Below are positions 6,558-27,385 of a stretch of 64,000 bases of DNA, piece by piece. The notes below the pieces were generated by a model. It saw only the letters and a program-made list of their open reading frames with translations, did no database searches and had not been told where the DNA came from. This stretch comes from Nemertoderma westbladi (taxonomy: Eukaryota; Animalia; Xenacoelomorpha). Both the position numbers and the translations under genes were made by a program. Location: positions 1-64,000 of the forward strand of contig JAUCBJ010002762.1 in NCBI GenBank assembly GCA_032718475.1, read 5' to 3'. Position 1 is the first letter of the stretch. Each line of letters starts with the position of its first letter.

Positions 6558-7214
6558 TATTTAGTATTTCTCCTCTAAAGACATGAATCAGTGCGAGTAT
6601 AGGTCCCATCAATAGAGCAAAGGCAACGCCTTCCAGCGGTCATTATAGAAATCGCACTGAATATTTTATTAAATCTGAGATAACATGGTGGGGCGAGCCA
6701 CGAAAGTAAAGGAACGGCTTAATACCGATAAAAATAAAATTATCCTTCGGTGTTACTTAAAAATATACTTCACTTCCTATTCATAAGTAAGATATTATAA
6801 ATCATGGCAAATATTTCCCTTTACTAAAAATTATACTATTATTAAGCAATTGTTGTTAATTTAAAATTAAGTACCGACACAAAATCAATACACTCTTTGG
6901 GGATTAGGGCCCGGTCAGTAGCCTTTGCCGTAGCATACTCTACCGCAATGTTAAATGTATTGTATATTACAATATTACAATATTACTTTTAGTTTTATAT
7001 TATATTGATTTGCACTATTAATGCTTCAGCTAAATGTAATAATGTAATGTATTAATAATAATGACTTGGATTTTCGGTATATTTTGGATTGCATTTTGAT
7101 TATTTTGAAGCTATACTTTGGATCCTAACGGACCCAAAGCACCCCTCGCCCGGTTTCTCTTTTTCCTCATCCCAGAGGTTTTTATATGGTGTTACAGTAC
7201 GCTATTTTTATATG

Positions 7215-7642
7215 AGTAGTAGAAGAAGAATGGTCCTTGTCGTAAGTCATCCCTAGCTTGGGCTATGGGCATACCACTCGGAGGGCTATTAAAAATGCCA
7301 AATTCCGGAGCTAAATTGCGGTGCGCGCCATATGTCACCATCGATCGGCAGTTGCCATCAACCAATCGTAGCGTAGCCTAACCTCGCGATGTCCGCCTTA
7401 CTCGACTACTGACTGACTAACTAACTAACCCTAATGTTATTCACCTTTTCGCCACGTTACCACCACCGCCACGCTACCACCACTGTATACTGTATATGGT
7501 GACGATGTGGCCATCTACACACATCGCGCATATATTATATAATATCGATTGCCAACTCCTCGACTGCTGTGGCCAAATCAACAAACCAACCAGTATGATA
7601 CATGAAATTCCGCCACGTTCCAGCTACGCGTATACGAGCATT
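7215..7642 (+). repeat. Left terminal inverted repeat of the Polinton
   Basis: Reverse complement of 26771-27169 with scattered substitutions and indels. Confidence 0.93.
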
Positions 7643-7887
7643 AGTGATTATTATTATTATTACGCAGAACCAAATAATTTTTGATTATACAGTAGTTGCC
7701 TACCGGCTAATCAACCAATCAATAAACCGAATTTAGGCTATTTCTCAGTTTAAGACCTGTATTATTTTTGAAAATATCTTATATATATAATCTCTTGCTT
7801 TAATCACAATTAATCATTTGTAATGGTTTTAGTTTAAAAGTTTTTACTTTGTTTGTTTGATTTACAATAAAATAAATTAATTAAATA

Positions 7888-8331
7888 ATGTCTTCTGATT
7901 CCGATATGGTTATGCCAATAGTAAGGCATTCATTTTTTGCAGAAGATGGTGAAGCCTATATTGTTATTGATTATACAATTTACCGTCGGGGAGATGATAA
8001 ATATAAAATTGAGTTTTCTGAAAAAGCCAGGAAAGTTTTAAGCTCAATTGATATTGATGCTTCTGATAATAGTATTCATCTCTTAGATTACAACCTGAAA
8101 GTTGAGCATGAGGGAAAATTAATCAATATCTTACTATTATCCATGATAGAGGGGTTCATTGTTATTACACAATACAACGAAGCTGGTGAAAAGTTTGAAA
8201 TACGGCTAAATCGGCATAGCCCCTACAAAATTATGTCTTTCTTTATTGTAATGATTTCAAAAGAATCCTTTATCGAAACTGAAGAATCAACAGATAATGT
8301 TGAATATGTTGATAATATCATTGATTTTTGA
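7888..8331 (+). CDS. Polinton accessory protein, unknown function (147 aa)
   Basis: ATG ORF just inside the left TIR after an AT-rich leader; no motif recognised. Confidence 0.6.
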   Translation: MSSDSDMVMPIVRHSFFAEDGEAYIVIDYTIYRRGDDKYKIEFSEKARKVLSSIDIDASDNSIHLLDYNLKVEHEGKLINILLLSMIEGFIVITQYNEAGEKFEIRLNRHSPYKIMSFFIVMISKESFIETEESTDNVEYVDNIIDF

Positions 8332-8519
8332 CTTTTCCCGCTATATTATAAATATTTTATGATTATTTATAAAATTTTGATGTTTTTAATTATGAAAAAA
8401 AAAAACATCAAATTTTAAATAATCGAAAATTGTAGTAGTAATTGCATATACAGTATAACAGATTTGTTTGTTGTTGTGTATCGAGGTAATTATTTTCAAT
8501 TTACTTTAAAATTTGGAAA

Positions 8520-8864
8520 ATGGATATTTTAAATGAAAAATGTCCAGTTTGCTATTCTAAGTTATTGCAACATCGAGATTATTATAAATGTGAAAATAAA
8601 CATGCAACTTGCGTACAATGTATTGTACAATATTCCGAAATGAATAATTATTGTTCTAAAATTTGTCCTATTTGTCGCGCACCCATATCTAAGTTTAATA
8701 TAAAGTTGGCGAGATACCAACCCTATTATTGGAAAGAGCTTCGCAATATAACTTATATTTCTGCGGAAAGTAATGATCAGGGAGATTTATTTACAATATT
8801 GGAGAATATTTTTTATAGAAATGTAGTACGACGGTGTTGCTACTATATTCCTTATTTTTTTTAG
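8520..8864 (+). CDS. RING-finger (C3HC4-like) protein, probable E3 ligase
   Basis: CPVC..CENKHATCVQC..CPICR. The stop follows a T-run at ~8854-8862, so the ORF may originally have extended further. Confidence 0.8.
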   Translation: MDILNEKCPVCYSKLLQHRDYYKCENKHATCVQCIVQYSEMNNYCSKICPICRAPISKFNIKLARYQPYYWKELRNITYISAESNDQGDLFTILENIFYRNVVRRCCYYIPYFF

Positions 8865-9193
8865 CAGCGAACATAAAAAAATCATTAGCGCGAAATTCTC
8901 GGGAAGTGATTTCCAAACCGCCGATGTTACCTATCATTATTTCGCATATAAAGATGCTCACCATGCTTGAAATTACACTGAAAATGAGTCTATACTATAA
9001 TTGGAAATAGCACCTTTTGTTGCAGCGAGCGTCACATACTGTAGTTGTGTCATATGTTAATTAAATATACAGTACTCTAATATTGTAGTTGCATCAATTA
9101 TTGTTATATACATAGTAATGGTGATGGTTTATTGATATTGATATTGATATTATATTATATTGTATTGTTGATATATCTTAATAATAATAATAA

Positions 9194-9874
9194 ATGGCTG
9201 ACTTTAATTCAGGTCCATATAATTTAAACTTTCAAATGGGAACGAGTATGATAATTTCTGGCCCATCTGGTTCTGGAAAGTCAACATTTGTTAGCAATTT
9301 AATTAAACACAAGAATGGTTGTTTCAACGAAGCCCCCTTGCGAGTATTATATTGTTACGGGAGCAATCCCCCAACTATTCCTGGTATTACTCACCTTTAC
9401 AAAGGTTTGCCAGAAAATATAGATAGTTTAGTGAATAGTCGAGATTTATTAATTATAGATGATTTATTAACAGAAACTGAGTCCAGTACAGCTTTAACTG
9501 TATTGTTTACTAAGGTAGCTCATCATTCCAATATATTTATTTGTTTTATAACGCAAAGCATGTTTTACGGTGGGAAGCATAACCGCACAAGATCAATTAA
9601 TAGCCATACTTTAGTATTAATGAAAAATCCGCGAGACAGTTTATCGGTTTTAAATTTCGCGAAGCAGATGTTACCAGGGCAGACCAAATTTTTAGTAGAT
9701 TCCTATCAAGATGCGACTATTGAACCATTTTCGCATTTCTTAATTGATTTACGACAGGAAACACCCGAACATTTAAGATTTAGATTGGATATATCTCGTA
9801 ATCATAATTGTTACATTAAAAATTACATTGACTATAAACATAGCGAAAATAATAATAATAATAATAATAAATAA
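9194..9874 (+). CDS. A32/FtsK-like genome packaging ATPase
   Basis: Walker A GPSGSGKS, Walker B LLIIDD, ITQ motif and the DL..ETP..LR.R motif typical of Polinton ATPases. Confidence 0.93.
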   Translation: MADFNSGPYNLNFQMGTSMIISGPSGSGKSTFVSNLIKHKNGCFNEAPLRVLYCYGSNPPTIPGITHLYKGLPENIDSLVNSRDLLIIDDLLTETESSTALTVLFTKVAHHSNIFICFITQSMFYGGKHNRTRSINSHTLVLMKNPRDSLSVLNFAKQMLPGQTKFLVDSYQDATIEPFSHFLIDLRQETPEHLRFRLDISRNHNCYIKNYIDYKHSENNNNNNNK

Positions 9875-9911
9875 TTAATATTTTGTAACAATTTTCAATA
9901 ATGTTGCAACA

Positions 9912-10295
9912 ATGAATAGACTTGTGTAGAAATATCGTAACGAACTGGAATTTCTACGCAGCGCTACCCCTCAACAAAGAACTTATTTTATTAACCATAC
10001 CGCGAGTAACGAATTAATACGGCTCATTGTAAATACTGCATTAAATGTTCTAAAAGGTAACATACAATTGACCCCTCATTCATTTAGAAATATTCGCCGC
10101 TATAAAAAGGTATTGAAATCACTCAACCGTAAAACAAAAAATATATCAAGTTACAGAAAAAAGTTAAGCAATCAATCTGGAGGTATACTACCGTTTCTAA
10201 TACCCTTACTCGGCATTGGTGCGAAACTCGCCGCGAGTGCCGGTGCCGCTGCCGCTGGAGCGGCTATTGTGAAAAAAATTAACCGTGGACGGTAA
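9912..10295 (+). pseudogene. Basic virion core protein with adenovirus pX-like C-terminus; premature TAG at 9927-9929
   Basis: ATG 9912 is in frame with the 10068-10295 ORF: MNRLV*KYRNELEFL..ALNVLKGNIQLT..QSGGILPFLIPLLGIGAKLAASAG. Confidence 0.75.
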
Positions 10296-10297
10296 TA

Positions 10298-10468
10298 ATG
10301 GTTAAAACAGGAGTAACATTTAGAAAATTATATTTAGTATCGAGTAAACCGTTAGCTACTGATTTAAAACCTCAAGATATACCTAGAGTAAATACTACAA
10401 AAAGAAAACCCTTTAAAACATCAACTTCAAAAAAAATAATAAAAAAATTTCAGTTGTTTTTACGGTGA
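10298..10468 (+). CDS. Small basic Polinton protein (56 aa)
   Basis: MVKTGVTFRKLYLVSSKP..KKFQLFLR*; starts 2 nt after the previous stop in the tightly packed gene block. Confidence 0.45.
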   Translation: MVKTGVTFRKLYLVSSKPLATDLKPQDIPRVNTTKRKPFKTSTSKKIIKKFQLFLR

Positions 10469-10519
10469 TGCCCTTTATAAGAGATTTGAATATACATATT
10501 ACTTGCAGTTGTCGAAAAG

Positions 10520-11608
10520 ATGCCACGCAAGATGAAACCGATTTTAAGCCGAAGCTTAGACAAAAAACTGTTAAGAATTTATTTAGATCCATCATCCCCT
10601 GCGGGTTTTGCAAGTATCGCAAAATTAGCAAAAGCTGCAAACATCAAACCAGCTCAAGCCCAGAAATGGTTGAGCGGGCAAAAGACATACTCCCTTCACG
10701 CACCACGTAGACATCATTATCCAACATCTAAAATATTTACGGGAGGCTTAAAAGATATATATATGATAGATCTGGTGGATATGCAGCAATATAAATCGCA
10801 AAATAATAATTATAACTATATATTAACATGTATTGATGCCTTTAGCCGGCTTGCTTTTGCCTATGGTATGAAAACAAAAAAGGGTATTGAAATTATTAGT
10901 ATATTGCAAAAAATATTCCAGAAAGGAAAACCAAACAGAATCGCAACTGATCAAGGGTCTGAGTTTCTAAATAAATCTGTAAGGAAATATTTAGATACTA
11001 TTGGTATACAGTATTATGTAATGTATTCTGTGAATAAGGCGGCTATTGTCGAGAGATTCAATAGAACATTAAAAACAAAGATGTTCAAAATTTTCACGCA
11101 ACGGGGAAATAATGTTTGGATAAAAATTTTACCGAAGCTCATTTATGCTTATAATAGGTCATATCATAGGACAATACAAATGACACCCATTGAAGTTAAT
11201 AAATTTAATGAAACTGAATTAATGAATAGATTATATGGGAAATATAGACAGATTAATCACAAGAAAATAAAATTTAAAGTTGGAGATACAGAACGATTAT
11301 CTATCGCTCGTACTGCTTTTGCTCAAGGCTATCGAGAACAATGGACACGTGAATTATTTATTATTCATCGGGTCAGATTGGATAGAGTACCAGCGGTAAT
11401 GTTCGATATTAAGGACAGTGCTGGAGCTATAATAAATGGCTCATTTTATTCATACGAACTCCAAAAGGTCCACCCAAATAGTAATATTTATCTTCCGATT
11501 GACAAAAATATTGGCAAACTTAAAGAACGTGTACGCAATGGGAAAAAAGAATATTTAGTCCGATTCATCGGATCCAAGAAACAGTCATGGGTACAGCATA
11601 TTCAATAA
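10520..11608 (+). CDS. Retroviral-like (rve) integrase with C-terminal chromodomain-like tail
   Basis: IDLVDM, CIDAFSR, TDQGSEF, VERFNRTLK (DDE core), YNRSYHRTIQMTP; tail KEYLVRFIG..SWV. Confidence 0.95.
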   Translation: MPRKMKPILSRSLDKKLLRIYLDPSSPAGFASIAKLAKAANIKPAQAQKWLSGQKTYSLHAPRRHHYPTSKIFTGGLKDIYMIDLVDMQQYKSQNNNYNYILTCIDAFSRLAFAYGMKTKKGIEIISILQKIFQKGKPNRIATDQGSEFLNKSVRKYLDTIGIQYYVMYSVNKAAIVERFNRTLKTKMFKIFTQRGNNVWIKILPKLIYAYNRSYHRTIQMTPIEVNKFNETELMNRLYGKYRQINHKKIKFKVGDTERLSIARTAFAQGYREQWTRELFIIHRVRLDRVPAVMFDIKDSAGAIINGSFYSYELQKVHPNSNIYLPIDKNIGKLKERVRNGKKEYLVRFIGSKKQSWVQHIQ

Positions 11609-11871
11609 GTTTAGGTTTATACTGTATATTAATTCATTTTGGTCACATATGTCCGTAATTAATTAATCAATCAATATTAACTCGAATGATATTACTATAC
11701 TATAGTTCATTCGCTTTAAATAAAGCCAGTAAAATATTGATCCCTCGCATATACTGTAGAAGCGGGAGGAATGAACGTGGTCACAGATGTCTATAATTTA
11801 ACATTATACCGTACTGTACTGTACTGTATGTACAAAGGAGTCAAGTAGAGAGAGCTTAAATAATAATAATA

Positions 11872-14168
11872 ATGGCTGTAGATACATATATCACTCTACT
11901 TTCAGATAGCTCATTAAACACTTACCCCAATAATAACCCTAGCGAGTTTACTGTTGATTTAGCTGAAGAATTATATATTGGTCCAAACGCTAAAATTGGA
12001 CTCGCAGAGATACAATACCAAGCAACATACAGTAATATTACTCTGCAAACTCAAATCTCGCTGTCAATCGGGGTAGATGCAAAAGATGCCAAATTATATA
12101 GTTTATTTACTGGTATGCATAGCTCTATTCAAGTCATTATTGATGATATAAATAAACTGTTTAATTCTGAAGCGAAATATAGAGATTTCGAATTCATTTT
12201 TAATACAAATAATTCTAGAATTAAATTTAAATTTCCTAAAAAGTTGAAAAAAATACAATTAAGTCTACGTGGTGATTTAATTCAAATTCTAGGCTTAAAA
12301 CCGTTATTGGATCAGAATCATCCGGGTATTCCGAATTGGGATATATACAGTACCACTACAGTGGATGAATTAAGCAATATAGAACAGCCGATATTAATTT
12401 TAAATTATAGTGGACCAAAAATTTCGGAAATTGGGATTTTAGATTTTCCAGCTCCCACAAATATTACTCGTAATAAAGATACTATCTTCATATATACAGA
12501 TATTATTAAGAGCTCATTTGTTGGTGACGCTTTAGCACCGCTCTTAACCCTATTACCACTGGGGTGTTTTGACCATTAGCACCACTGGGGGGGGGGGGCC
12601 GATTCGGCCCACCCACTATATTTTTGTAGTCGTCCAATGAAATCCTACAAAATTTGGGCTGTTGGTGAAACAACTATAGATGAACACTACCAAACCTTAA
12701 AAAATTAAAATTTCATAAGCAGGGTCTCATAATTTTGATGAAAAATAAAAGTAGTCCCAGGACAAAATTACAAAATTTTTCGTTTTCTAAAAACTAATAG
12801 TGTGGCAGTGTTGGCTAGATTTAGTAGGTTTTTCAAGACGCTGAATCGAATGTGATTATATTCCACTTCCAAAAATTGAAGTGGATGCTATTTTTCGTGC
12901 ACCTAAGAAGTGGGCGTGGCACTTCAAATTTTGAAAAATTAGATATTCAGAAAATGCCCCTAATTTTTTTATTTCAACGCATCTTTATGGGTTTTCTGGG
13001 CCGCTAAATCGATTGAAAGTAATATAGAAGCCTGAAGACTGAGTGGTTCGCCATTTTTGGTGCACCAAAATTAGGGCGTGGCACTTCAAATTTTGAAAAA
13101 TACCAGATTCGGAAAATAAACCAAAATTGAAATTTTAACGAATTTATATAGGTTTTCCAGACCGCTGAATCGATTGAAAGTAATATAGAAGCCTGAAGAC
13201 TTAGAAGTTAGCCATTTTTTGAAATCAAAACTTTAGTGTTTTTTCCGAAAAAAGTAATTTTGAAAATTTGAAGTGCCACGCCCTAATTTTGGTGCACCGA
13301 AAATTACGTACACAAAGGATTTGAGGCTTCTATATTACTTTCAATCGATTCAGCGCTCCAGAAAACCTATAAAATTAATTTGAAATCAAAACTTTAGTGA
13401 ATTTTCCGAAACTCATATTTTTCAAAATTTGAAGTGCCACGCCCTAATTTTGGTGCACCAAAAATGGCGAACCACTAAGTTTTCAGGCTTCTATATTACT
13501 TTCAATCGATTCAACGCTCCAGAAAACCTATAAAAATGTTTTGCAAATCAAAACTTTAGTGTATTTTCCGAATCTCGTATTTTTCAAAATTTGAAGTGCC
13601 ACGCCCTAATTTTGGTGCACCAAAAATGGCGAAACACTACACTTACATACTTGTATAGAACATTAGAGTGATCCAAACCAATAAAAATAAATAAAAATAG
13701 CCCAAACATAAATAATTACTAAATCACGAATGACTTTGTAAAATTCGAAAATTTCAAAAAATTTGGTGCTGGAGACCAAATTTTGAGGTGGCACCCACAT
13801 CGAAAAGTAGAAATCCAATTGCAACGGCGTTTTTTGCAAAAGATGCGGCATTAAATTTGGCTAATTCTCACAAAAAATTGGGCCGGTACGTAATGTGGTT
13901 GCATAGTTACAGCAACTAAAAACTAGGAAGGGGCCGATTCGGCCCCCCCCCAGTGCTAATAGGGTTAAGAACCTGTCCTTTAACACAATTAAATCGAAAA
14001 TATATTAATCACGAATACGAGAGCATTTGCTATTACCCGTTGTTGAATAAAAAACTAAAAACAATCTTAATTACTTTACGTGACGGCCAAGGCGAATTAA
14101 TTAATTTCAGCGGAGGTCGCACTGTTATAACACTTAAGTTAATACGCAGTGGTGGTGGTGATGGATGA
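11872..14168 (+). pseudogene. Minor capsid protein (penton) 1, interrupted by a piggyBac MITE
   Basis: YITLLSDSS..PNNNPSEFTVDL..IGLAEIQY. Joining 11872-12547 to 13969-14168 restores a 291-aa ORF reading VGDALAPLLRTC..LRDGQGELINFSGG.TVITL. Confidence 0.9.
12548..13964. mobile_element. Non-autonomous piggyBac-type element with internal ~161-bp repeats
   Basis: TTAA at 12544-12547 and 13965-13968; ends CCCTATTACCACTGGGG / CCCCAGTGCTAATAGGG; no ORF. Confidence 0.92.
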
Positions 14169-15006
14169 GCTCTACGTTAGACTACCAAGTAACTCCTGTC
14201 CAATTGATTTTCCTCGTAATACTGCTAGTAATTATCAGATAAATTTCCATGGCGCCTTACCTATAAATCCAAACGAAAACTGGGTGGTAGGTATAAAAAG
14301 TATATTTTACTTAGCCACATTGCCGTCCATGTATAACAATGTAGAGAATGTTATTTTATTAAAAAAAGGGAAAAAAAATTTTGAGGATACACTTCCATCC
14401 GGTTTGTTCTACAGTATCAATGACATTATAGATTATTTTAACACTGGAGCGTTGAAAGATAAATTACAAATAGTTGAAAATATTCAGCAAAATAGGGTGC
14501 AATTTATTTTAGGGAAAACTGTACGAGAGTTATTTATAGGTCAACAATTAGCCTATTATTTTGGAATTACTGAAAATAATCTCGGCGCGAATTTAAATCC
14601 AAATTTTAAAATTATTTTGAAGACGAAAAATAATATAAAGGGTTATTTAATAAAGGTTATCGGAAATGAAGAAAAAGCTTACCAGATGGTATTTTTATGC
14701 CCTCAACCACCCAATTCTATTCCAGAACCTAAATCGAACATGTACGTGACTACTAATATAATTGAAAATGAATATATTAATGACTTTGGTTTAGCCTTAC
14801 TTCGTCGTGTCGCGATACCTGATGATGTGAAATATGGTAGTGTAATAAATAAAGAATTTGTCAAGGATACAATTCATTATATCCCTGTAAAAAAATCATA
14901 TAAGATAATATACATTCATATTGAAATAACAGACAAAGAAGGAAAAGATTTGAATTTTGAATACGGGACAACTTGTATTACCTTACACTTTAAAAAAATA
15001 AATTAA
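14161..15006 (+). CDS. Minor capsid protein (penton) 2
   Basis: MDELYVRLPSNSC..FPRNTASNY..WVVGIKSI..YVTTNIIE..ALLRRV..HYIPV..IEITDKEGKDLNFEYG.TCITLHFKK. Confidence 0.88.
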   Translation: MDELYVRLPSNSCPIDFPRNTASNYQINFHGALPINPNENWVVGIKSIFYLATLPSMYNNVENVILLKKGKKNFEDTLPSGLFYSINDIIDYFNTGALKDKLQIVENIQQNRVQFILGKTVRELFIGQQLAYYFGITENNLGANLNPNFKIILKTKNNIKGYLIKVIGNEEKAYQMVFLCPQPPNSIPEPKSNMYVTTNIIENEYINDFGLALLRRVAIPDDVKYGSVINKEFVKDTIHYIPVKKSYKIIYIHIEITDKEGKDLNFEYGTTCITLHFKKIN

Positions 15007-15007
15007 A

Positions 15008-15571
15008 ATGGATTCCGATTTATTTCAAAGATACAGTAAACCTCAATATGGTGGTGCAGACTCTAATCTTGCTGTTTTTAAAGGGGGTAGAAGTACGAGA
15101 GGCTCGACGCAAGTTCCTGTTTTTCGAGGTGGTTCATATATTGACCCTTACGGACAACAAATTGGTGCATTTGGTCCAAACTTAAAACAACGTCGTTTTC
15201 AATGTTATCGTAGAGGTATGTTGCGAACAAATCAACACGGGGAAGGTATATTTACAGACGCTTTATCTACATTGAAAAAATTTGGTAAGCCATTAGCAAA
15301 AAAAGTGTTACAAAAAGCTTTACCATTTACCACAAAATTTATGAGACAACACGTAATACCAAAAGGTAAGTGGGTCTTACATCAGCAGGCTAATACGGTT
15401 ATTAATAAAGCATTAAATAAAATGAAACCATCCACAAGATCGGTTGTAGAAAAAGTTTATAGAGACTTAAAGCGACCTACTAGACCAATGTCTATGAACA
15501 TACATCATCGACGTAGTAAAAAGAGAAATATAAAAGGCAAACTGAAACACTGCGAAAAAAGTATTTTTTAA
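15008..15571 (+). CDS. Basic core/membrane-active virion protein precursor upstream of hexon
   Basis: Lys/Arg-rich; Gly-Gly motifs QYGG, FKGG, FRGG and QHGEG followed by an amphipathic IFTDALSTLKKFGKPLAKK segment; position typical of Polintons. Confidence 0.65.
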   Translation: MDSDLFQRYSKPQYGGADSNLAVFKGGRSTRGSTQVPVFRGGSYIDPYGQQIGAFGPNLKQRRFQCYRRGMLRTNQHGEGIFTDALSTLKKFGKPLAKKVLQKALPFTTKFMRQHVIPKGKWVLHQQANTVINKALNKMKPSTRSVVEKVYRDLKRPTRPMSMNIHHRRSKKRNIKGKLKHCEKSIF

Positions 15572-15573
15572 TA

Positions 15574-16834
15574 ATGTCAATTATTAAGGAATTAGATTTA
15601 TTTTCTACACAACCAATTCAGACTGAATTTAAAGCAAAGCATTATGAAACAATTTACCCGGTATCCAATCTCAGAAGCGAGTCTAGGGAAGTCACGTTCC
15701 TTGTACCAAGATCCAATGAATTCTATACGAAACTGCAAGATGCGTTATTAATTACAAAATGTACTGTACGGTGGGATAGACGACTTGAAAACTCCCATAT
15801 TTATATGTTGAATTACCCCGCTGGAACTATGTGGAGTGATATTAAAATAGACCTTAATGAGAAGCAGGTTGAAAATAGCAATAACCATTATTTTCTACAA
15901 GTCGTACTTATCCAATTTACTATTTACAACATACGAAACTAAAAATGGGCTACTGGGGGTGGGTGGCTTTCATCAACCTTTATCCGAACACGGAAATGAA
16001 ATTGATCCTGGTGCGCATCCTATTGGCGATGCCTTTAGTAAACAAATGCAATTTGTAAGTGGATTGACAATTGATTTTGATACTGAAACTAAAATAATAC
16101 AACCCGGGTATGATTTAAGAATGCATTTTAGAAAAGTATCAAATTCGTTTATTTTTAAAATCACTCGAAACGCAAACGCTGTGACAAATCTTCGGTTAGA
16201 ATTAGATGAAGTAAAGATCCTAATCCCTAGAATGGAGGTTAATCCCGTAATAGAAAGCAGTCACCTAAAAGGTTTAGAGAGTTACGATATTGAATATCAA
16301 TTCCAAAAAAAGGAGGTTACAACATTTACTATTCCCGCTCAAACCACAAATTACACCCAAACAAACATATTTGATGGTAAAAAACCCAAATTAGTTATTA
16401 TCGGTTTTATAACAAATAATGCATATTCGGGAGAATTAATTAGCAATCCCTTGAAATTTGAACATTTTAACCTTAGACGCGCGGAACTGATTGTAGACGG
16501 TCTTCCAGTAGGTGGTGTAATATACGAGCCTAATTTTACAGATGGAACATACATTTTTGAGTATACTCAATTAATGAAAAACATTAATACATATATTAAC
16601 GGTTATGGAGGTGATAATATAGACCATGAAACCTACTTAGGTAATTGCCCGCTCATATCTTGGGACCTAACCGCCGACGGCTATGTTAGAGATCCGCAAC
16701 CATCGATATATACTAACGGTCAATTAAAATTAAGATTTGCCGAACCGTTGATTGAGACCATAAATGTAATCGTTTTTAATATTTATGATCAATCATTTAG
16801 TTTAAATAGCAGGAAAGAAATACGTATCGATTAA
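15574..16834 (+). pseudogene. Major capsid protein (hexon, double jelly-roll) with a +1 frameshift at ~15891-15895
   Basis: ELDLFS..YETIYP..VENSNNHY continues in the next frame as YKSYLSNLL..KPKLVIIGFI.N.AYSG..NPLKFEHFNL..WDLTAD..LKLRFAEPL. Confidence 0.9.
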
Positions 16835-16836
16835 GT

Positions 16837-17295
16837 ATGTTATCTACAGAGGACCTTGATATGTTTCCAGTGGGTGGTCACTATTTGGGAGCGTTTCCAT
16901 CTAACAAATTACCTAAATTAGATAATAATAATAAACGGAGGAGAGATTATGGGTTAATAGTAAACACCGATAAACAGCATCTGCCCGGGGTTCATTGGAT
17001 CGCTATATATATACGAGATAATGAGGCTGAATTATTTAATTCATTCGGACCAAAATATCCAAACAGATGTATCGAAAAATGGCTTGAGAAAAATTCAGCG
17101 AGGTGGCGTACTACCCGGAAACAATTTCAAGACCCCAGGAGGACCACATGTGGATTATACTGTCTTTATTACTTGGTAAATCGAATTCATACAAACTATC
17201 CAATGAGAGTGTTTACAAATAATGTGGAAATAAATGAAATAATATTATATAAATGGCTTGTTAATTATTATAAAATAAACCAACAAGCGTTGTAA
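16837..17295 (+). CDS. Adenain-like cysteine maturation protease
   Basis: IVNTD..PGVHWIAI (His), LFNSFG, QFQD..TCGLYCLYYL (Gln, Cys). Confidence 0.92.
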   Translation: MLSTEDLDMFPVGGHYLGAFPSNKLPKLDNNNKRRRDYGLIVNTDKQHLPGVHWIAIYIRDNEAELFNSFGPKYPNRCIEKWLEKNSARWRTTRKQFQDPRRTTCGLYCLYYLVNRIHTNYPMRVFTNNVEINEIILYKWLVNYYKINQQAL

Positions 17296-17326
17296 TTAAT
17301 CATTTAACTTTTGTTTATCAGATAAA

Positions 17327-17935
17327 ATGGATAATATTATTTTTGTTGATTTTCAATATTATAAGATAGACAATAAGGAATATCCGGTAGTATTTAAAGA
17401 ATTTGCTATATTCGATTCTAATTACACCAAAACTAATGTAAAGATGTTTTTAATTAAAGGTCCGCCTAATATTAAGTTATCAGCATTAGATGTAGCTCAC
17501 GTAAACAATTTACGAGACATGACTCCGCATTTACCTTGGGATTACGGTGACATTTCGCAAGATGACTTTAAAAAATACATGAAGAGACATTTAAAATATA
17601 AAAAAAATATACATGTATTTGGGTTGATGAAGCGGGCAATATTAGTTTCCCAACTTGATGTTCTCGCACCAAATTCGATGGAGAAATTGTGGATATATCA
17701 ATATCGGCAATATTACAATTATTTAACCCCCTGTCGCTTCCACGATCAATTTATTGCACTAGAAAATAAATGTGCATTCCACTTAAACACAAGGGATAAC
17801 TGTCTGCGGTACTGCTCTGCTAAACGTGTCGGCGGGTTTGAATTGAAACGATTTTTCGTGAGAAAGCGTTTAACTGACACTGATGATGATAAACAGAAAG
17901 AAATAACTGCGGTGGAAGATGTACTCGTACAGTAG
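17327..17935 (+). CDS. Polinton protein with a possible degenerate DEDD/DnaQ-like exonuclease fold
   Basis: IFVDFQ..VFKEFAI, LPWDYGDI, VFGLMK and a C-terminal C..H..C cluster resemble a recurrent Polinton gene; fold assignment is tentative. Confidence 0.5.
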   Translation: MDNIIFVDFQYYKIDNKEYPVVFKEFAIFDSNYTKTNVKMFLIKGPPNIKLSALDVAHVNNLRDMTPHLPWDYGDISQDDFKKYMKRHLKYKKNIHVFGLMKRAILVSQLDVLAPNSMEKLWIYQYRQYYNYLTPCRFHDQFIALENKCAFHLNTRDNCLRYCSAKRVGGFELKRFFVRKRLTDTDDDKQKEITAVEDVLVQ

Positions 17936-18981: not shown

Positions 18982-18998
18982 CAACAACAACAACAACT

Positions 18999-19034
<36 letters not shown>
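18982..19034. repeat. (CAA)n microsatellite
   Basis: Direct reading. Confidence 0.9.
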
Positions 19035-19084
19035 CTAAATTTATTACCGTATTATACTTTTTTATATACCTATATGAGGATCCC

Positions 19085-19711
19085 TCAGAGGTGTTTCCCC
19101 TTTACCGGTACCTGTAAATGGTTGTTTGAGGAGTTTATAGGCCTAACTTCTACCGGTCTTTGCATCGGTAGATCGAAGCTGTTTGAGGAGTTTATAGGCC
19201 TAACTTCTACCGGTCTTTGCATCGGTAGATCGAAGCTGTTTGAGGAGTTTATAGGCCTAACTTCTACCGGTCTTTGCATCGGTAGATCGAAGCGAAGCGT
19301 ATTATCAACATCATTCTCCCAATTCTCCGAATTTTCACTAGAGGGTGAGCTTCCCGGTATTTGAGATTGTATCCTTATATTGAGGGTGAAATCTTTAGAA
19401 ATTTCAACCTTTGTTGGTGATAAAGGTAGACCTACTCCATATTCTACCGAAGTAAACCCGATCTCAAATTTTTGGTTTATATATCGCAACTCCATCTCGG
19501 CAATATTGGATGCTGAGAGATATGTTTCGTCGCTTGATTGCAAATCGATTTTGATACAACTTTTCAACCCTTGGTTATTAAAAAAGGCGAATGTCATCTT
19601 CCTTCGAGGTAAGTTGTCGTCGTCGTAACTACCGGTAAGAATATCTTTAAATTGAATAGGTAGGCCTACTGGTATTTTTTTCTTCTTTTGTTTAACAAAA
19701 TTATAGTTCAC
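19085..19711 (-). CDS. Polinton orphan ORF with three 19-aa (57-bp) repeats
   Basis: FDLPMQRPVEVRPINSSN(S) x3 at 19124-19293; non-ATG start in the ORF track, so the true start is uncertain. Confidence 0.45.
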   Translation of the reverse strand: MNYNFVKQKKKKIPVGLPIQFKDILTGSYDDDNLPRRKMTFAFFNNQGLKSCIKIDLQSSDETYLSASNIAEMELRYINQKFEIGFTSVEYGVGLPLSPTKVEISKDFTLNIRIQSQIPGSSPSSENSENWENDVDNTLRFDLPMQRPVEVRPINSSNSFDLPMQRPVEVRPINSSNSFDLPMQRPVEVRPINSSNNHLQVPVKGKHL

Positions 19712-20282
19712 TGTTAGAAAAATTGAGTTTATATATATTTTTGTAGAGGGTCGCAGATGTGTACATTACAAAATTCTCATAGTTAACAAAATGCACAACA
19801 TAAACCTTTCCCATGCGGATTAGCGATATATGCTCTGTTCATTGTTCTATTCTGAATGTAGGGAGATGCATAGCCGATGTTTTGATGATATGTACCGGTA
19901 TACAGACTAGTAACAGATAGGAGGGCATCGTCTTTGACTATGAATACCAGCACATAGCCCTAATCTTTTCTCACTGAGCTTAGCGTTGTCTGCTGCACAT
20001 ACACGCACACTCATAAGTAACAGATGCGCTATTGTAGCTCACTCGTGAGCAGCGATGCTTAGTTAGCTAGCTAGCTAGTTACGGCCACTGAGTATACTAT
20101 GCCTACTTGAGTGTTACAAGCAATCGCTCTACTGAAGTTAGTTAGTTAATTTCCCCTCAAACTAGTTGTTGATTTAAAAAAAAATATTCATAAATTTTTT
20201 TTCCAGCCAATTTAATATATATATATATTTTACAGTAAAAATCTCCACCACCAAACAGCAACAACAATAAATTTCACTCGCA

Positions 20283-20837
20283 CTAATTATATTTTACAAC
20301 AAAAACCCTCGCACCAAACAATAATAAATTATTAACCAGTTTGTTGAATATAGGATAATATATATAAAATTTAAACGGGGAACACATTAATGTACATTTA
20401 CCAGTGTAGAAGCAGCAAACAACAACATTATTATTTATTCTGACTTTACAGTTATTGAATATTTCGGGATCGTATGAAATTTCTAGTTTAACATTATCAA
20501 ATATAACATAAAACCCTATATTGTTTATAAGTAACCTATAAATTACGGTATCTATACTAAAAATATAAGTACACAAATTGATTGATTTAAAAATCAAATT
20601 AATGTTTGTTTTTTCGAATATATGCTTTTTCACTTTATTAAAATTATATTTTCTACCGAGAATTGTTATTCGACCATTTGTAAACATTAATATGGTTGCA
20701 CCAAATACCTTATATATAAACTGATTAGGTTTGAGTACAATTTTACCAGTCAATTGATTTTTTAATTCTTTTAAATTAAGTCCATAAATGATCTGCTTAC
20801 AACTTATATTTTTATTTACTATTTGATAATTCATCAT
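20283..20837 (-). CDS. TATA-binding protein (TBP)-fold protein
   Basis: Two TBP-like repeats: NISC..LNLKEL..KPNQF..ATILMFTNGRITILG and ISYDPEIFNNCKVRI..VVVCCFYTGKCTL, compared with canonical TALIFSSGKMVCTG and SYEPELFPGLIYR..LLIFVSGKVVLTG. Confidence 0.8.
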   Translation of the reverse strand: MMNYQIVNKNISCKQIIYGLNLKELKNQLTGKIVLKPNQFIYKVFGATILMFTNGRITILGRKYNFNKVKKHIFEKTNINLIFKSINLCTYIFSIDTVIYRLLINNIGFYVIFDNVKLEISYDPEIFNNCKVRINNNVVVCCFYTGKCTLMCSPFKFYIYYPIFNKLVNNLLLFGARVFVVKYN

Positions 20838-23800
20838 CAACACCATCGTCTTTTGGTTCTTCATAAATTGGTATATTTGATATTTTTATAGGTTTTTTGA
20901 GGTTTGTTTTATAGTGCCCCCAAGGAAGTGATTGATTTTTATTAACCCAATAAAGTTTATCATCAAAGCTACTGAGTGCAAATTTATTTTGCAAAGTATA
21001 AATACGATGTAATTTAAATTGAAATCTGTGTATGTTTTTTTTATTTCTTCATTTGAGTTATATGCTTTTAAATATTCTTCATGTGTAATATTCGTTTCCA
21101 CAACAGCTCTTGTAATACCTTTTGCTCTACGAATATTTTTGTTATTCCATTCCAAAATTGAATATAATTTTGGTCTTAAAAATACTGCTTGTTTAATTTC
21201 ACGTGAGGCTAGTTCGTCTTTACAGTAATAGAGTCTGGATTTATTTTTATCGCTGTAGAGAGGGTGATCCTTAGGGTAATTGGAAGTATCTAAAATATTA
21301 TTTTTAATTAATGCTTTTAAAAAATTATTCTGCGATGTATTATAGTAACAACCTATTAAATAGTCGGTATCTGATGCAGCAATTTCAATACGGCAGTTTA
21401 ATTCTTTCTCAATAGGTAGCAATTTATTGTAGAACAGCTCATACATATCTAATTTAGCCAAGTCCAACACAGTGCTACCAATAAATATAGGCTTATCGAG
21501 AGTTACAGAGTCTTTTACTAATAAATGTCCCGATAATGTATTATTGTATATTATAAATTGTTCATGATTAATACGATTTAACAATTGATCGCATTTATCA
21601 TTGCTATTTGCGATACGAAAGTTACATCGATCTCTTATCTTTTCTATTGATTTGCCAAATAACGAATTATTGAGCAATTTCGCGACAGCTGTTTCAATGT
21701 AACTTTTTGCTACTCGCCTTTGATTAATATTAAAATCTATGTAATTTTTAAATACAAATTCTTGTTGAAAAGAATATAATTTATGTAGTTTAGTAACAAT
21801 TAATCCATGTTTTATATAAAATTTTAACAGTTTCAAATGTAAATGATAAAACTCTTTATCAAATTGCGTCAGCAAGAGTTTTGCTGTAGGCATCCTATAT
21901 TTACGGGAGGTACCTCTTTGTATCGATAAGTTATTAAATTGTTCTCTCATATAAGGTGAAAGCATTGATTCATTTATACTTAAATGCTCTGGAGCTAATG
22001 GTAATTGTAATGTTTGATCGTGAATAGCTTTGGGATAATTTAAATCACATATTCAAAAATATCCAGTAGATCCATCAATGTCTAAATCTACCAAGTACTC
22101 GATTAGTTTTTCTGGAATTGCATTCTCTAAATGTTTAATACTTACTTCTTTGAATTGTGAGGTGGGTAGTTTTTTACTTAAATTCCCAGAATATAAAGAG
22201 TTGAAATCAATATTAAAAATATGGCATTCTTCCTTAGTAGAACCATATGTACTTGTTCCTGGTATATTTGATTCTATATAATGCTTTCGACAAAATGAAA
22301 CACCACCCCTTATTGATTTTTCAAAATCTCTATATGTCTGATAATCCTTTATTAATTCTATTTTACATTTATTATATTTTAGTGCGCAATCATAGGTAAA
22401 TGACGCGATACTACAGTAAAAAACCACTTCTAAATCGTAATTTTGTTTACAAACATTCCTAAAATTCTCAAATATATCAGCAAGCAAACAAACATCGAGT
22501 TTTAAATAGGCTAAAAGATAATCTTTGAGATTCACGCAGTCGAATTCTATCCATGATAATTCCGCAAACCTATAATCTTCAATTGTGCATGTTTTTTGAC
22601 TTAAGTTACTAAAAAAATTATTTATAGACGGCAAACCAGTATCATTAAATCTATTTATATCTGTCAAGTACTCGTATGGAAATACTCCTTTCTGTTTAAT
22701 TGTTGAGTTATTCAAGTTTGGATAAAAATATTTCATTTCTTGTAGAGTAATAGGTAAAATTGAGCTTATATCATGACTCGCTACATCCTTTGTTGAACAC
22801 TCAACTAAATTACTTAAAGAAAAGCTTAAAAATTGATATGTGTCTAAGAAACGTAACTCAATTTTCTTAGAAGTGTTTTGAATTGGGATAAATGCACTCA
22901 GTGAAATATATCGTTCTGTATTTCTCGGTATAACCTTTATATCCCAATCTGTGTATTTCTTATCTCTAAATCCGGTTTGTAATATACAATGTATATCGTA
23001 CTTGTTGGAATTGTGTCCGCAAAGTACATACAGGTATCGTTTCAATGATAAACTTCGGTTACAACTATTACAGGTTGCCGCAATATATTTACCTGTAATA
23101 TGTGAATGATGTCTGTTTTTCCCTACATTATTATTTAAAGTAACATTACAATAGAAACAAAATTTTGCTTGTTCAAAATTTACAAAATCAATATTAGTAA
23201 ATGACATAGTTTTATGAGTGTATATTTCTGACCAACAACATAATTCAGTTAAATCAGTATATAATGAATCTAAGAAATCTTGAATACAATTATTATTATT
23301 TGACTTTACAAATGTTTTCAAATGACATTTTGGAGCATCAAGTAATTCACTATTGGGAACAATTAAATAACTCACAGCACACGGTATATGCTCCTGTATA
23401 ATTTGATTATTAACTGAAGGTTGTAAGATACATTCTATATCAAAGTAGGTGACAAACAATGGGGATAAGGTTCTATCTAAATTTGTAAAACTAATGTGTG
23501 TTCTTTTTTTATTAGGTAGTTTCTCTCGTTGACTTCTTCCTTGGTAGCAGGAGAGACGGTGTCGATGAAGAACTTCCGCTCAAAAAAAATGAGTCAAACA
23601 CCTTTCACAAAATTTCCTATTGCTGATATGAAGAGCTCTCGTATTCAGCAATCGATTCAAGTTAGTTATGCAAACATAATGATTCAGTTTAGGTACATTG
23701 TTATTTTTTACTACAACTAATATATTTAATAACTGTTTATCAGGTGTAATTTTACTAAACGGTGGTTGTCTTAATATAGATACAGGGGTGTGTTTGTTAT

Positions 23801-24868
23801 CGTTATTCCAACATAGTAAATTAATTATATATTTTGAATTTTGTTTTTCAAAAAGTTTAATCGCTAACTGCCACTCTGTTGGATAATCATTTTTTCCGTT
23901 GTCAAAAATGAAATGACTCATATAATTTTTGTACTATGAAGTAAGCTGTTTGTTGTTTTTCACTTTGCTACTAAATTTTGCGGCTATAATAGCCCATTTG
24001 AAACAGTCATTATCAACCGATTGTACATTTATAACACATCATTTACTCGATAGAACCTTAGGTAATTCCATATATCCATGCCCCTTATATAGTAACGACC
24101 TACACTTAGATTCAGCTAATTTAATTTCAACCCTTAATAAAGATTTAATACGCCACCCTGAACCACGTGTGTTAAAGATGGCTATTTTTTGTAATATATT
24201 TTCCAGCACATACTCAAACCATGTGTCAAAACTTTGTGATGAATCTACAGTATTAATAGCACCACCGGAAGAATTAAAATAAAAGGTTTCCAATTGCTCA
24301 CCTTCTGAAAAATGTGATCTGTACATTAATACATTTAGACCAAACCACAGTCTAAGAACATTCATTTCTTTCAATCTATCTAATATTAACTGAAGAATAT
24401 TACCTCGAATTTGCATTACTGCTGTTTCTACATCGGGATAATCTCTAGAAGTTGGGAGGTCGTGGACATAAATTTCAAGACGATTATCGTGAGCGTCTTG
24501 TTCCCGCGTAAAAATTGTTGCGCATGTACCAAGAGCCACCCTTAATTTTTTTCTAGATAATATATTTTTTTTATGTTGCGGAGATTTACGCTTCTTGTGT
24601 AGTAACATTTCAAGTGACAGTCGTGTCGTAAATAATTCTCATATGTATACTCTTTATTACAGGTAGAACAAGTCAATTGATAGGTACGGAACTCCATTTC
24701 TTTACAACCAGTAGTTGATTCATGTCGTTTACAAATTTCGCTGCATGAAGTCACGACATGACACTTAAAACAAGAATAACTTTCAAAATGTGACCGTAGG
24801 TGGCGTAAATAATTATGTCTAGTTACATTCATATGACAGAATGAACAACATATTGTTATTTTATCCAT
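20812..24868 (-). pseudogene. Protein-primed family B DNA polymerase with N-terminal Zn fingers, vOTU-like region and inserted EndoVII/HNH domain; 4 in-frame stops and 2 frameshifts
   Basis: Exo motifs YFDIEC, HNSNKYD, YLKLDV; Pol motifs DFNSLYS, KLLNNSLFGK, SDTDY, LRPKLY, AKGI, ALSSFDDKLY. Stops at 24039, 23934, 23580 and 22053; frameshifts near 24570-24610 and in the A-run at ~21035-21042. Confidence 0.95.
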
Positions 24869-25061
24869 GCTGAAGTTTGTTTAGATAAATAATAATAATA
24901 ATAATAAAATATCTCCAAAGATTAAAATAAAATGAAATGAAATGATATTGACTATATCTAAACATTTATATGCTAGCGAGTGAAATAATTTTAAACCAAT
25001 CACCAAACATCAATCGCCTATGGGTATTGGAAACCTCAAAGAGTTTAACTTATGATCGGGT

Positions 25062-26126
25062 TTACATGTTAGGATAATAATCTGGTTTCCATGGAGAATT
25101 AGTAACTAGATCTACTGGAGCTGGGTTAACAGCAACTTTCTGTTTCTTTGCAGGTGATGCATTGGTAAATTTACTCGATGATCTTGGCTTCCGAGGTAAT
25201 ATTTCAGGAAAGACCTGTTGCGGTTGAGTGCAACTCTCTTCAACATCCGGATTAGGTGATGGGATCTCTACGAATGCTTTAGGTTTATCCAAAAGGATAA
25301 AACCGTCTACATTGGCTTCAATAAGAGAAACGCCATCCATAGCCTCTTTGAGAAAACTAATATGGGCTTTATCATTCAAGTAATGCAACTCAATAGAATT
25401 TCCGCCGGCTCCTACTTCAGTAGAATTATCGGTGTTGGTGATAATAATTTTTTTATTATTGGTTTTAATCATTTTGAAACGGTCTGATAATTGAATGATA
25501 TTTTTATCAAAAAGATGCTTGTCTGGTTCATCAATTTGAGTGTCCCACTCTCGCAACAAAACGGTTAGTTCCTGATTTGACAAATTGAAACCCGTATAAT
25601 AGTTAAAACCAAAACTATCAGCGTATCTGACGCTGATTTTCCATAAGCCAACATAGTTGGTTCCTTTAAAAGCTGTTACAAATCCAATAAACTCTGGATT
25701 TGATAATTCAATGTAGAATTGATCGCTAATAATCTCTAGCGGTGGAGAGAGAAATTGCAATAATTTCCCTCTGTATTGAATTAGAACTTCAGTAAAAGCT
25801 TTGTTGAGGACTTTACATTTGCCTTGTTTCTGAACGTAAACATCACCCGATGTGGGGTTGATGGATATATTCAAATTTCCCCGCGCAAAACGAAGAGTGG
25901 GATGTATCCTACCTGGTATAATTGCTGGTCTGGATTGATGTTGGTTGTTGGTTGTTGTTTCTAGAATGTCTAGCAAATAGCGAGTATCTTGATGGGAAAA
26001 ACAAATTGATTCGTTGTCCTCCTGAGATTCCACAATAAAATACTTGCTGTGAACGACGGTACAAGTATATTTATTGTAAGTAAATTTCCGGCTATTTGTT
26101 GCTCCGGTTTTTTGCGTTAAGGCCAT
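25062..26126 (-). CDS. Polinton protein with probable PC4/Sub1-like ssDNA-binding domain(s)
   Basis: FVTAFKGTNYVGLWK..TGFNLSNQELTVL resembles PC4 VSVRDFKGKVLIDIRE..KGISLNPEQWSQL; NLS-like PAKKQKV near the C-terminus. Confidence 0.5.
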   Translation of the reverse strand: MALTQKTGATNSRKFTYNKYTCTVVHSKYFIVESQEDNESICFSHQDTRYLLDILETTTNNQHQSRPAIIPGRIHPTLRFARGNLNISINPTSGDVYVQKQGKCKVLNKAFTEVLIQYRGKLLQFLSPPLEIISDQFYIELSNPEFIGFVTAFKGTNYVGLWKISVRYADSFGFNYYTGFNLSNQELTVLLREWDTQIDEPDKHLFDKNIIQLSDRFKMIKTNNKKIIITNTDNSTEVGAGGNSIELHYLNDKAHISFLKEAMDGVSLIEANVDGFILLDKPKAFVEIPSPNPDVEESCTQPQQVFPEILPRKPRSSSKFTNASPAKKQKVAVNPAPVDLVTNSPWKPDYYPNM

Positions 26127-26770
26127 AATAATAAATACGAAAAATATTACAAGTGATAAATTTTAAACTGTATCGCTGTAATAAATTGACACCATAGTTC
26201 TCACTCTAAAATTGTGATGTAAAACAATAGAGAAGATACGGGATCGTTTTAATTTCCGTATTACTAATACCAAGGAGAAATGCAATCTCGTATCTTCTCT
26301 ATTGTTTTGCAACTCCAATGTCGGAATCAGTATCATTTATGGGGTGTTGTTTTCCGACCAACGAATATACAACGAGTAAGATAATGTAGAAATTATTAAG
26401 GAAATAACACAATTTCAGAGTGAGAACAAAAAATTAGATATGGTATCAATCAATATATTACCATGAAGATTACAAGTGATGAATTTTAACAAAAACATTC
26501 AGTTATATATAAATTTTGAATGCGTGTGGATGCGGCATAATCAACGTAGAAGAGATGGGGTGTGGCATAATCGACGAATGAGAAAAGAGATGGGTTGCAA
26601 TGTGGATGAATGGTTGCGTGGATAGGAAATATGTGAAAGAATATGAATCATTGGGTTGTGCGTAATAATAATCAATAATTATAATAAAAACGCACAGTAT
26701 AATGTTAGTAGTAGCCTTTCAATATGGCACAGATGCTGAGGGATCGGTTAGGATGAGTAACTATTATGGA

Positions 26771-27169
26771 AATGCTCGTATACGTGTAGTTGATGCGTGG
26801 CGGAATTTCATGTATCATACTGGTTGGTTGGTTTGGCGACAGCAGTCGTGGAGTTGGCAATCGATATAATATAATATAAGCGTGATGCGTGTAGATGACC
26901 ACGTCGTCACCATATACAGTATACAGTGGTGGTGGTAACGTGGCGAAAAGGTGAATAACCGTAGGGTTAGTCAATCATTCGAGTAAGGCGGGCATCGCGA
27001 GGTTAGGCTACGCTACGATTGGTTGATGTCAACTGCCGATCGATGGTGACATAAGGCGCGCACCGCAATTTAGCGCCGGAATTTGGCATTTTTAATAGCC
27101 CTCCGAGTGGTATGCCCATAGCCCAAGCTAGGGAGGACTTACGACAAGGACCATTCTTCTTCTACTACT
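26771..27169 (-). repeat. Right terminal inverted repeat of the Polinton
   Basis: Reverse complement of 7215-7642. Confidence 0.93.
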
Positions 27170-27385
27170 TATATGCCAGAAGGGAGCAATATACATCTTG
27201 AGAAGAACAGAAATCACTGTCTTTTGCACTACCTTTGAAGGGTTGTGGATGTCCGTAAATAACAAGTCATTGAAGGACCGTGTTCTAATGGGAAATATTT
27301 TATGTTCTATTTTTCAGTTTCCCTGACAACCACTGCAAACAGATGCATTTTGATAGAAAATCGGTAATTTGGACATAAACTACAA

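Follow-up and report, generated by a model that had tools for sequence, protein, structure and literature searches.

Many large DNA viruses that encode TATA-binding protein (TBP)–like proteins bring their own RNA polymerase. A system in which a viral TBP works with the host enzyme is that of KSHV (the herpesvirus associated with Kaposi's sarcoma), for which the available text of PMC12529657 reports that ORF24 is a viral TBP paired with a TATTWAA box before late genes and uses host RNA polymerase II (Pol II). TBPs are also mentioned for mirusvirus-like repeats in the accessible part of PMC10675990. Closer to the element described here, the label "TBP" stands in figure legends on MELD viruses with an adintovirus-like PolB (Starrett et al. 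2021, PMC8502044, Fig. 5; preprint 10.1101/697771); the available text of both versions holds no family, residue, promoter, or distribution analysis of it, and the whole words TBP and TATA were not found in one supplement of PMC8502044. A term search found no TBP/TATA-box passage in the accessible text of PMC10748475, PMC11131425, PMC11296320, PMC11071308, PMC8097293, and PMC12220804, or in that of 10.64898/2026.06.19.733378 and 10.64898/2026.10.13.758929. A literature search outside subscription papers, figures, and bioRxiv supplements found no publication that describes a family of Polinton TBPs or the promoters of such elements. Here, we analyze a TBP-like open reading frame (ORF) in a Polinton of the xenacoelomorph Nemertoderma westbladi, which lies in a 64,000-nt stretch of contig JAUCBJ010002762.1 (positions 1 to 64,000 of the forward strand, hereafter the window).

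A TBP Homolog Next to pPolB

The ORF at 20283–20864 on the minus strand is open over 193 codons from its first ATG, or 184 if Met10 is the start, and none of 2,000 shuffles of the region produced a stop-free frame as long. Its start shares 53 nt with the last piece of pPolB (Table 1). The whole ORF matches the Pfam TBP family (PF00352) over two stretches with 28.6 bits (E 1.3e-6), the curated cut-off being 22.9 bits, and when its halves were scanned separately, TBP was the best Pfam match for each (E 0.005 and 0.003). The repeat is visible through profiles and fold alone, since direct self-alignment of the two repeats was not significant, with 833 of 2,000 shuffles scoring equally high. The ESM Atlas places the ORF in TBP clusters at 0.94, an assignment that is weak taken alone because the recognition value was low. 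As a single query, the ORF found no relatives among PDB sequences, in a 5.8-billion word search, among 1.84-billion representatives, or in IMG/VR, and these single-sequence searches came back empty because the protein is too divergent. IMG/VR also gave no relatives when queried with the pPolB piece or the capsid piece singly, and no loci emerged when it was scanned with the family alignment, an archaeal TBP, or a motif of eukaryote type; phage records gave none.

AlphaFold modeled the protein with a predicted local distance difference test score (pLDDT) of 78.7 and a predicted template modeling score (pTM) of 0.68 when supplied with 126 family sequences, none of them cellular; the single sequence gave a pLDDT of 34.8. 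Foldseek returned 44 matches in the PDB, and among the 39 listed every one with E ≤ 0.001 was a TBP, at 14 to 18% identity. The best TBP match by VIA was to 2z8u (Z 11.8, root-mean-square deviation [rmsd] 5.2 over 158 residues), the best non-TBP match reaching a Z of 7.2. The family profile matched 35 PDB sequences, all TBPs or TBP fusions, and viral TBP-like proteins in BFVD matched the model with E 4e-6 to 2e-3 at 9 to 18% identity. Solved human, yeast, plant, and archaeal TBPs are 14 to 20% identical to the Polinton protein.

We then compared the residues that contact DNA and TFIIB, relying on the available text of PMC12529657 for what the four Phe, the paired Asn, the Pro, and the acidic residues do in TBP. 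Three of the four intercalating Phe are retained (F61, F136, and F152), because Pro46 holds the first site and Phe49 of the PNQF motif is buried. Profile alignment to archaeal TBP (hhalign) pairs Pro46 with the first intercalating Phe and Phe49 with the Leu that follows, and in the secondary structure of the model Pro46 occupies the stirrup site equivalent to Phe136 of repeat 2, with Phe49 buried in strand S2. Pro at this column is 100% conserved in both family subgroups (60 + 60 proteins). By alignment, Asn17 is kept, the second central Asn position falls on Thr99, and Asn137 replaces the Pro after the third Phe, so that the protein has neither the four Phe nor the full set of both Asn and that Pro found in canonical TATA-binding TBPs. 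The acidic second stirrup for TFIIB is retained by sequence (Asp132 and Glu134). A low-confidence insertion lies within repeat 2 at residues ~107 to 116. The assignment of the other DNA-facing columns, and of the TFIIA side, follows yeast numbering and is presumptive. Between the two subgroups, named KPxQ and GRP, the DNA-facing columns show sharp and consistent differences at positions 19, 59, 67, 99, 101, 140, 150, and 161. The Nemertoderma protein is KPxQ-like at positions 19, 52, 59, 99, 140, 154, and 161 and departs from KPxQ at 67, 69, 101, 137, 150, and 162.

Judged from profiles and the predicted fold, the ORF is a real TBP homolog encoded by a Polinton. A sequence-only reading of this DNA had proposed an intact ORF of ~185 amino acids overlapping the pPolB 3' end, with both TBP repeats, in a Polinton; the frame, the Pfam matches of the whole ORF and its halves, the top structural matches of the model, and the inverted repeats that bound the element (see below) bear this out. 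It had also put Phe residues from four short motifs at the four intercalating positions, which holds in part: all four motifs, PNQF, LMFTNG, PEIF, and CFYTG, are present and three of the Phe fit, but the PNQF Phe is not intercalating and Pro46 stands at that site.

Selection among Copies and Inheritance with One pPolB Lineage

Public contigs of one organism, from three studies, hold many variant copies spanning the whole TBP ORF (summed contig depths are not equal to copy numbers). Among these copies 56 differences were listed, and the following counts cover the 40 best supported. Third codon positions hold 29 of the 40, and 24 are synonymous, when 19 to 26% would be expected (p ≤ 5e-6), which corresponds to a ratio of nonsynonymous to synonymous polymorphism (pN/pS) of about 0.16 to 0.23. 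The codons of Asn17, Pro46, Phe61, Phe136, and Phe152 are unchanged among these differences. The ORF itself has a single listed indel, which spans 3 nt and keeps the frame, and the flanking DNA has many indels of 1 to 2 nt. The TBP ORF is under purifying selection among copies.

Using a pPolB alignment as the query, we collected 100 related loci, nine of which carry a TBP gene on the same strand as pPolB and downstream of it; of the 34 loci that extend 2 kb or more beyond pPolB, 8 do. The nine relatives' TBPs are 15 to 26% identical to the Nemertoderma protein, and their profile retrieves 354 proteins at E ≤ 1e-4, with Pfam TBP in all 120 listed of these. The family divides into the KPxQ and GRP subgroups. 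Profiles built without the Nemertoderma protein score it at 37.0 bits (Polinton family), 32.3 (KPxQ), 21.3 (GRP), and 10.5 (archaeal TBP). It shares with the Polinton-type TBPs the Pro in place of the first Phe and the same-strand position downstream of pPolB, and it scores best on the family profile. In a pPolB tree built quickly from 35 rows, the Nemertoderma element, the nine TBP loci, and L038, a TBP-less 6.9-kb contig that ends 2.4 kb after pPolB, form one branch with a Shimodaira–Hasegawa-like approximate likelihood ratio test (SH-aLRT) support of 97. Pfam scans found no further TBP among 100 unlabeled ORFs of TBP-less loci and no TFIIB-like partner among 18 unlabeled ORFs of TBP-bearing loci. 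The TBP gene is conserved and inherited with one pPolB lineage. The sequence-only reading had placed TBP outside the standard Polinton gene set, and its presence beside pPolB in nine of the 100 related loci agrees with that, the label "TBP" having already been printed in the Fig. 5 legend of PMC8502044. Its view that the gene is not a recent host retrocopy is likewise upheld by the low identity to solved TBPs, the membership in a family of 354 proteins, and the shared Pro.

The loci contain further genes of interest. In all four KPxQ loci, an ORF of 90 to 102 amino acids with no Pfam match directly precedes TBP (L021:7763–8032, L024:4457–4732, L025:5721–5990, and L028:14292–14597); it is preceded by a phospholipase A2–like gene in the three loci scanned and is a candidate TBP partner. 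In all five GRP-type loci, TBP overlaps an upstream ORF of 216 to 252 amino acids by several hundred nt in another frame (L017:7511–8399, L018:2522–3467, L020:1896–2826, L023:4842–5739, and L030:8810–9743); this ORF belongs to no Pfam family, and TTAAGC lies 40 to 54 nt before it in four of the five. TBP-less relatives have other host-like genes, with a PC4 coactivator at two loci as well as Bcl-2 and CAP domains (L005:11376–11885, L042:6229–6849, L042:4778–5221, and L008:4421–4762). Ten Polinton-type pPolB contigs (L091 to L100) sit inside prokaryotic metagenome-assembled genome records, probably through binning contamination.

Promoter Words before Late Genes

Words were counted in the 130 nt before late genes after three internal gene fragments had been removed. 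In relatives, each subgroup has a word of its own: CATAAAC precedes 7 of 9 late genes in KPxQ elements (0.4 expected), TTAAGC precedes 9 of 13 in GRP-a elements (0.6 expected), and YACGCA precedes 4 of 5 in the GRP-b element (0.2 expected), with another group's word found in one case overall. In 19 TBP-less elements, canonical TATAWAW precedes 21 of 60 late genes (9.1 expected), as against 4 of 34 in TBP-bearing elements (Fisher p 0.016). Since the words had been found on the same late genes, unlabeled genes were checked as a held-out set, in which CATAAAC occurs before 5 of 19 (p 2e-4) and TTAAGC before 8 of 17 (p 2e-7). Most words lie 35 to 75 nt before the ATG and on the gene strand; CATAAAC is on the gene strand in 9 of 10 occurrences in L024 and 12 of 12 in L028. 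Permutation per element was strong for L024 (4/300) and L028 (0/300). None of the group words was found before the seven TBP and seven pPolB starts examined.

In the Nemertoderma element, ATA(A/T)AC precedes 6 of 8 late genes (p 6e-4) and 8 of 11 plus-strand genes (p 1e-4); these p values are uncorrected for a word chosen after seeing the data, and we treat this weak post hoc signal as a hint only. As a relaxed form of the KPxQ word CATAAAC, it is our best guess for the word of this element. Canonical TATAWAW is not enriched before the Nemertoderma late genes (1/8). Two canonical TATAAAA boxes lie inside pPolB coding DNA upstream of the TBP start and form a candidate host-TBP (early) promoter; such boxes precede none of seven relatives' TBP starts.

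Host Element and Its Surroundings

The TBP ORF is contained in a complete, high-copy Polinton of 19,955 bp (7215–27169). The element has the marks of Polintons/Mavericks, with terminal inverted repeats (TIRs) with AGT ends, a 6-bp target-site duplication, and a length inside the 15 to 25 kb range. Its TIR arms agree at 379 of 449 columns. The core genes found are pPolB (in pieces), an rve integrase, an A32-like ATPase (a weak Pox_A32 match, E 0.001), and a C5 protease. The Pfam scan gave no match for double or single jelly-roll capsid proteins in the element, and the capsid and core gene names in Table 1 are therefore presumptive, taken from gene order and similarity to relatives' ORFs. The two most upstream pPolB pieces are presumptive too, assigned by motifs only. 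The same scan identified no RNA polymerase or TFIIB gene. In this copy TBP is intact, and pPolB and the minor-capsid-like (one of two), major-capsid-like, and small core-like genes are broken.

Table 1. Coordinates of the TBP gene, its promoter candidates, and the Polinton that carries them (window positions)
Feature	Position	Strand	Details
TBP-homolog ORF	20283..20864	-	193 aa from Met1; alternative starts Met7/10/11; 184 aa from Met10
TBP repeat 1	20649..20825	-	residues 14-72; Asn17, Pro46 replacing first intercalating Phe, Phe61; from Pfam half scan, hhalign, columns
TBP repeat 2	20319..20582	-	residues ~95-182; acidic stirrup Asp132/Glu134, Phe136, Phe152
Pro46 codon	20727..20729	-	family-invariant; site of first intercalating Phe
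Two canonical TATAAAA boxes	20884..20913	-	within the pPolB coding region, 76 and 53 nt upstream of Met10; candidate early promoter for host TBP
pPolB	20812..24868	-	~six frame pieces in this copy
pPolB pieces	24542-24868, 24039-24638, 23580-23933, 22053-23579, 20886-22052, 20812-21048	-	
Left TIR	7215..7645	+	begins AGTAGTAG
Right TIR	26750..27169	-	begins AGTAGTAG
Target-site duplication TATATG	7209..7214	.	6 bp, perfect; identical copy 27170-27175
Putative late block	7888..17935	+	orf147, RING protein, packaging ATPase, small core-like gene (early stop), rve integrase, two minor-capsid-like genes (first interrupted), core-like ORF, major-capsid-like gene (two frame pieces), C5 protease, orf202

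Within the late block, the RING-finger-like ORF (8520–8864) has weak Pfam RING matches, and the first minor-capsid-like gene is split by a stretch of ~1.3 kb (12580–13920) in which direct repeats of 161 bp and inverted repeats of 286 bp occur, its C-terminal piece lying at 13920–14168. The minus strand holds pPolB, TBP, and two ORFs without an assigned family. One, downstream of TBP (19085–19597), encodes 170 amino acids with three tandem 19-residue repeats and has no family match; the other, orf354 (25062–26126), is first on the pPolB strand and encodes 354 amino acids with no Pfam or Atlas match. The idea that orf354 might be PC4-like was not supported when checked. Elsewhere in the window, an open 3,697–amino acid ORF (31875–42968) with a Pif1 helicase, a weak Rep, an FCS zinc finger, and a C-terminal ubiquitin hydrolase represents a Helitron-type element flanked by satellite-like repeats, and 56279–62831 contains reverse-transcriptase fragments (58038–59450) as well as a 4.1-kb spaced direct repeat that also has inverted copies. 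The Helitron, LINE fragments, and satellites around the Polinton point to a probable animal host.

Discussion

We think it probable that the Polinton TBP, which is under purifying selection and travels with one pPolB lineage, acts as a late-gene switch through a variant box, host TFIIB, and Pol II. A role in switching late genes on via the host polymerase is likely because in relatives each TBP subtype pairs with its own word. As to timing, binding, and recruitment, we infer that the TBP gene would be expressed early by host machinery from the canonical TATA boxes at the 3' end of pPolB. The predicted target of the protein is a variant TATA-like word ~35 to 75 nt before the capsid, packaging, and integrase start codons; the protein's altered reading face would determine the word, and its three Phe would bend the DNA; host TFIIB and Pol II would be recruited through the retained acidic stirrup. 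The sequence-only reading had suggested that the element draws host Pol II to promoters of its own, possibly those of late capsid genes. The subtype words of relatives and the canonical TATA of TBP-less elements speak indirectly for this, but the Nemertoderma element itself has no significant word. Whether the scheme extends to a one-protein early-to-late switch, in which a bare Pro-for-Phe TBP uses host TFIIB and Pol II and in which DNA face and word have co-diverged into orthogonal pairs (CATAAAC, TTAAGC, YACGCA, and a fourth in the Nemertoderma element), is in our estimation evenly balanced.

A number of observations weigh against a late switch of this kind. In the Nemertoderma element, k-mer, one-wildcard, and strand-bias scans gave no significant word (106, 76, and 36 of 300 permutations were as good as the best), and CATAAAC, TTAAGC, and YACGCA occur before none of its eight late genes in an 18- to 150-nt window. 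Its ATA(A/T)AC is scattered 30 to 143 nt upstream, precedes only 3 of 8 late genes in a 25- to 100-nt window, and is mildly enriched in TBP-less elements too (15/60 vs. 7.7). A canonical TATAAAAG stands at -45 of the major-capsid-like gene, and a canonical TATA is also found before orf202. In relatives, YACGCA precedes none of five held-out genes, permutation is weaker for L017, L018, and L030 (39, 15, and 13 of 300) and likewise for a pair of elements that lack TBP (17 and 13 of 300), and an upstream stop codon lies inside 6 of 36 words. The link between word and subtype comes from three lineages only, with two, three, and one informative elements. As for the protein, near-invariant family residues are absent at positions 67, 69, 137, 146, 150, and 162, the model deviates from TBP by an rmsd of ~5 Å, and in a quick TBP tree, which has 22 archaeal TBPs as its sole outgroup and does not tell the origin of the family, it sits on a branch of 4.0 changes per column with no supported placement.

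Some of these points would be explained if the switch were family-wide and the Nemertoderma lineage had relaxed or shifted its specificity, binding AT-rich DNA loosely or aiding host TBP at canonical TATA. We consider this unlikely, even though it would account for the lack of a significant private word, the canonical TATA found upstream of both the capsid-like gene and orf202, and a composition unlike the family on a very long branch. The Pro that follows the third Phe has been lost, together with other family residues, which points the same way; in TBP, that Pro helps to make T the first letter of the box, according to the available text of PMC12529657. However, strong purifying selection persists among copies, the listed KPxQ-type residues are kept, TATAWAW is not enriched before the late genes, and the 70% AT content of the element leaves little power to detect a word made of A and T only.

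We give slightly less credence still to a decoy or nontranscriptional role, whereby the protein titrates away TFIIB, NC2, or Mot1 of the host, or serves replication or packaging by binding the element's DNA, and the words are read by a host, element, or helper-virus factor. Virophages that use the late promoter of a helper virus are known. One intercalating Phe is lost family-wide, and a TBP that lacks such a Phe can acquire another target; in Giardia, TBP binds DNA in single-stranded form, as stated in the accessible part of PMC12209930. Moreover, TBP subtype, word, and pPolB clade share ancestry across just three informative lineages, and the match between TBP and word could therefore stem from any co-inherited gene. 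Nevertheless, the DNA-facing columns differ by subgroup, as expected if the face reads different words, these words are TATA-like and at a TATA-like distance, and TBP-less elements have canonical TATA instead. That the ORF arose by chance, or is a recent host TBP/TRF retrocopy carried passively, is effectively refuted: single-sequence searches found no relatives and the tree has no animal TBP or TRF2 rows, both of which would leave room for it, but the shuffles, the 14 to 20% identity to solved TBPs, the family Pro and other shared marks, purifying selection, and the position within TIRs beside pPolB, as in relatives, all argue to the contrary.

A late switch built on the Polinton TBP would matter in several respects. 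The timing of Polinton capsid genes, and whether these elements pass through early and late phases as true viruses do, would become addressable using a single small protein and some short oligonucleotides. TBP variants that pair naturally with different boxes would show how far TBP specificity is rewritable and could supply orthogonal core promoters. If the orthogonal pairs of TBP and word are real, they would amount to a natural TBP recognition code and to evidence for a timed, virus-like program of integrated elements.

Comparison with Known Systems

Like the cellular TBP core (PF00352; PDB 2z8u, 1cdw, 1ytb, and 7egb_P), the Polinton TBP is predicted to form a two-repeat saddle of ~180 amino acids, with three intercalating Phe, the first central Asn, and an acidic second stirrup. 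Unlike it, the Polinton protein is only 14 to 20% identical, has Pro for the first Phe and a short, basic first stirrup, a changed second Asn and post-third-Phe Pro, an insertion of ~10 residues, no N-terminal extension, and is encoded by a mobile element. The TBP-like proteins of large DNA viruses (such as EsV-1-53, the HaV01 putative TBP, and the asfarvirus B263R homolog) are divergent TBP folds too, at 9 to 18% identity, and no polymerase or TFIIB gene was identified in the Polinton. The MELD virus "TBP" (PMC8502044) is likewise a TBP-like gene in a Polinton-type element, known from the legend label alone.

A parallel in working is the TBP of beta- and gammaherpesviruses, exemplified by KSHV ORF24, with which the Polinton protein shares a TBP fold and a rewired DNA face and probably also a tie to a variant TATA word before late genes and the use of host Pol II. 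According to the accessible text on ORF24, however, that protein is multidomain, retains all four Phe but not the acidic residues for TFIIB, and depends on five further viral activators. The Polinton TBP, unlike ORF24, BcRF1, or UL87, is a bare core of 184 to 193 amino acids in which the acidic stirrup is preserved, and no genes for partners were identified. In its probable working it resembles the herpesvirus late-gene TBP mimics, yet is not one of them.

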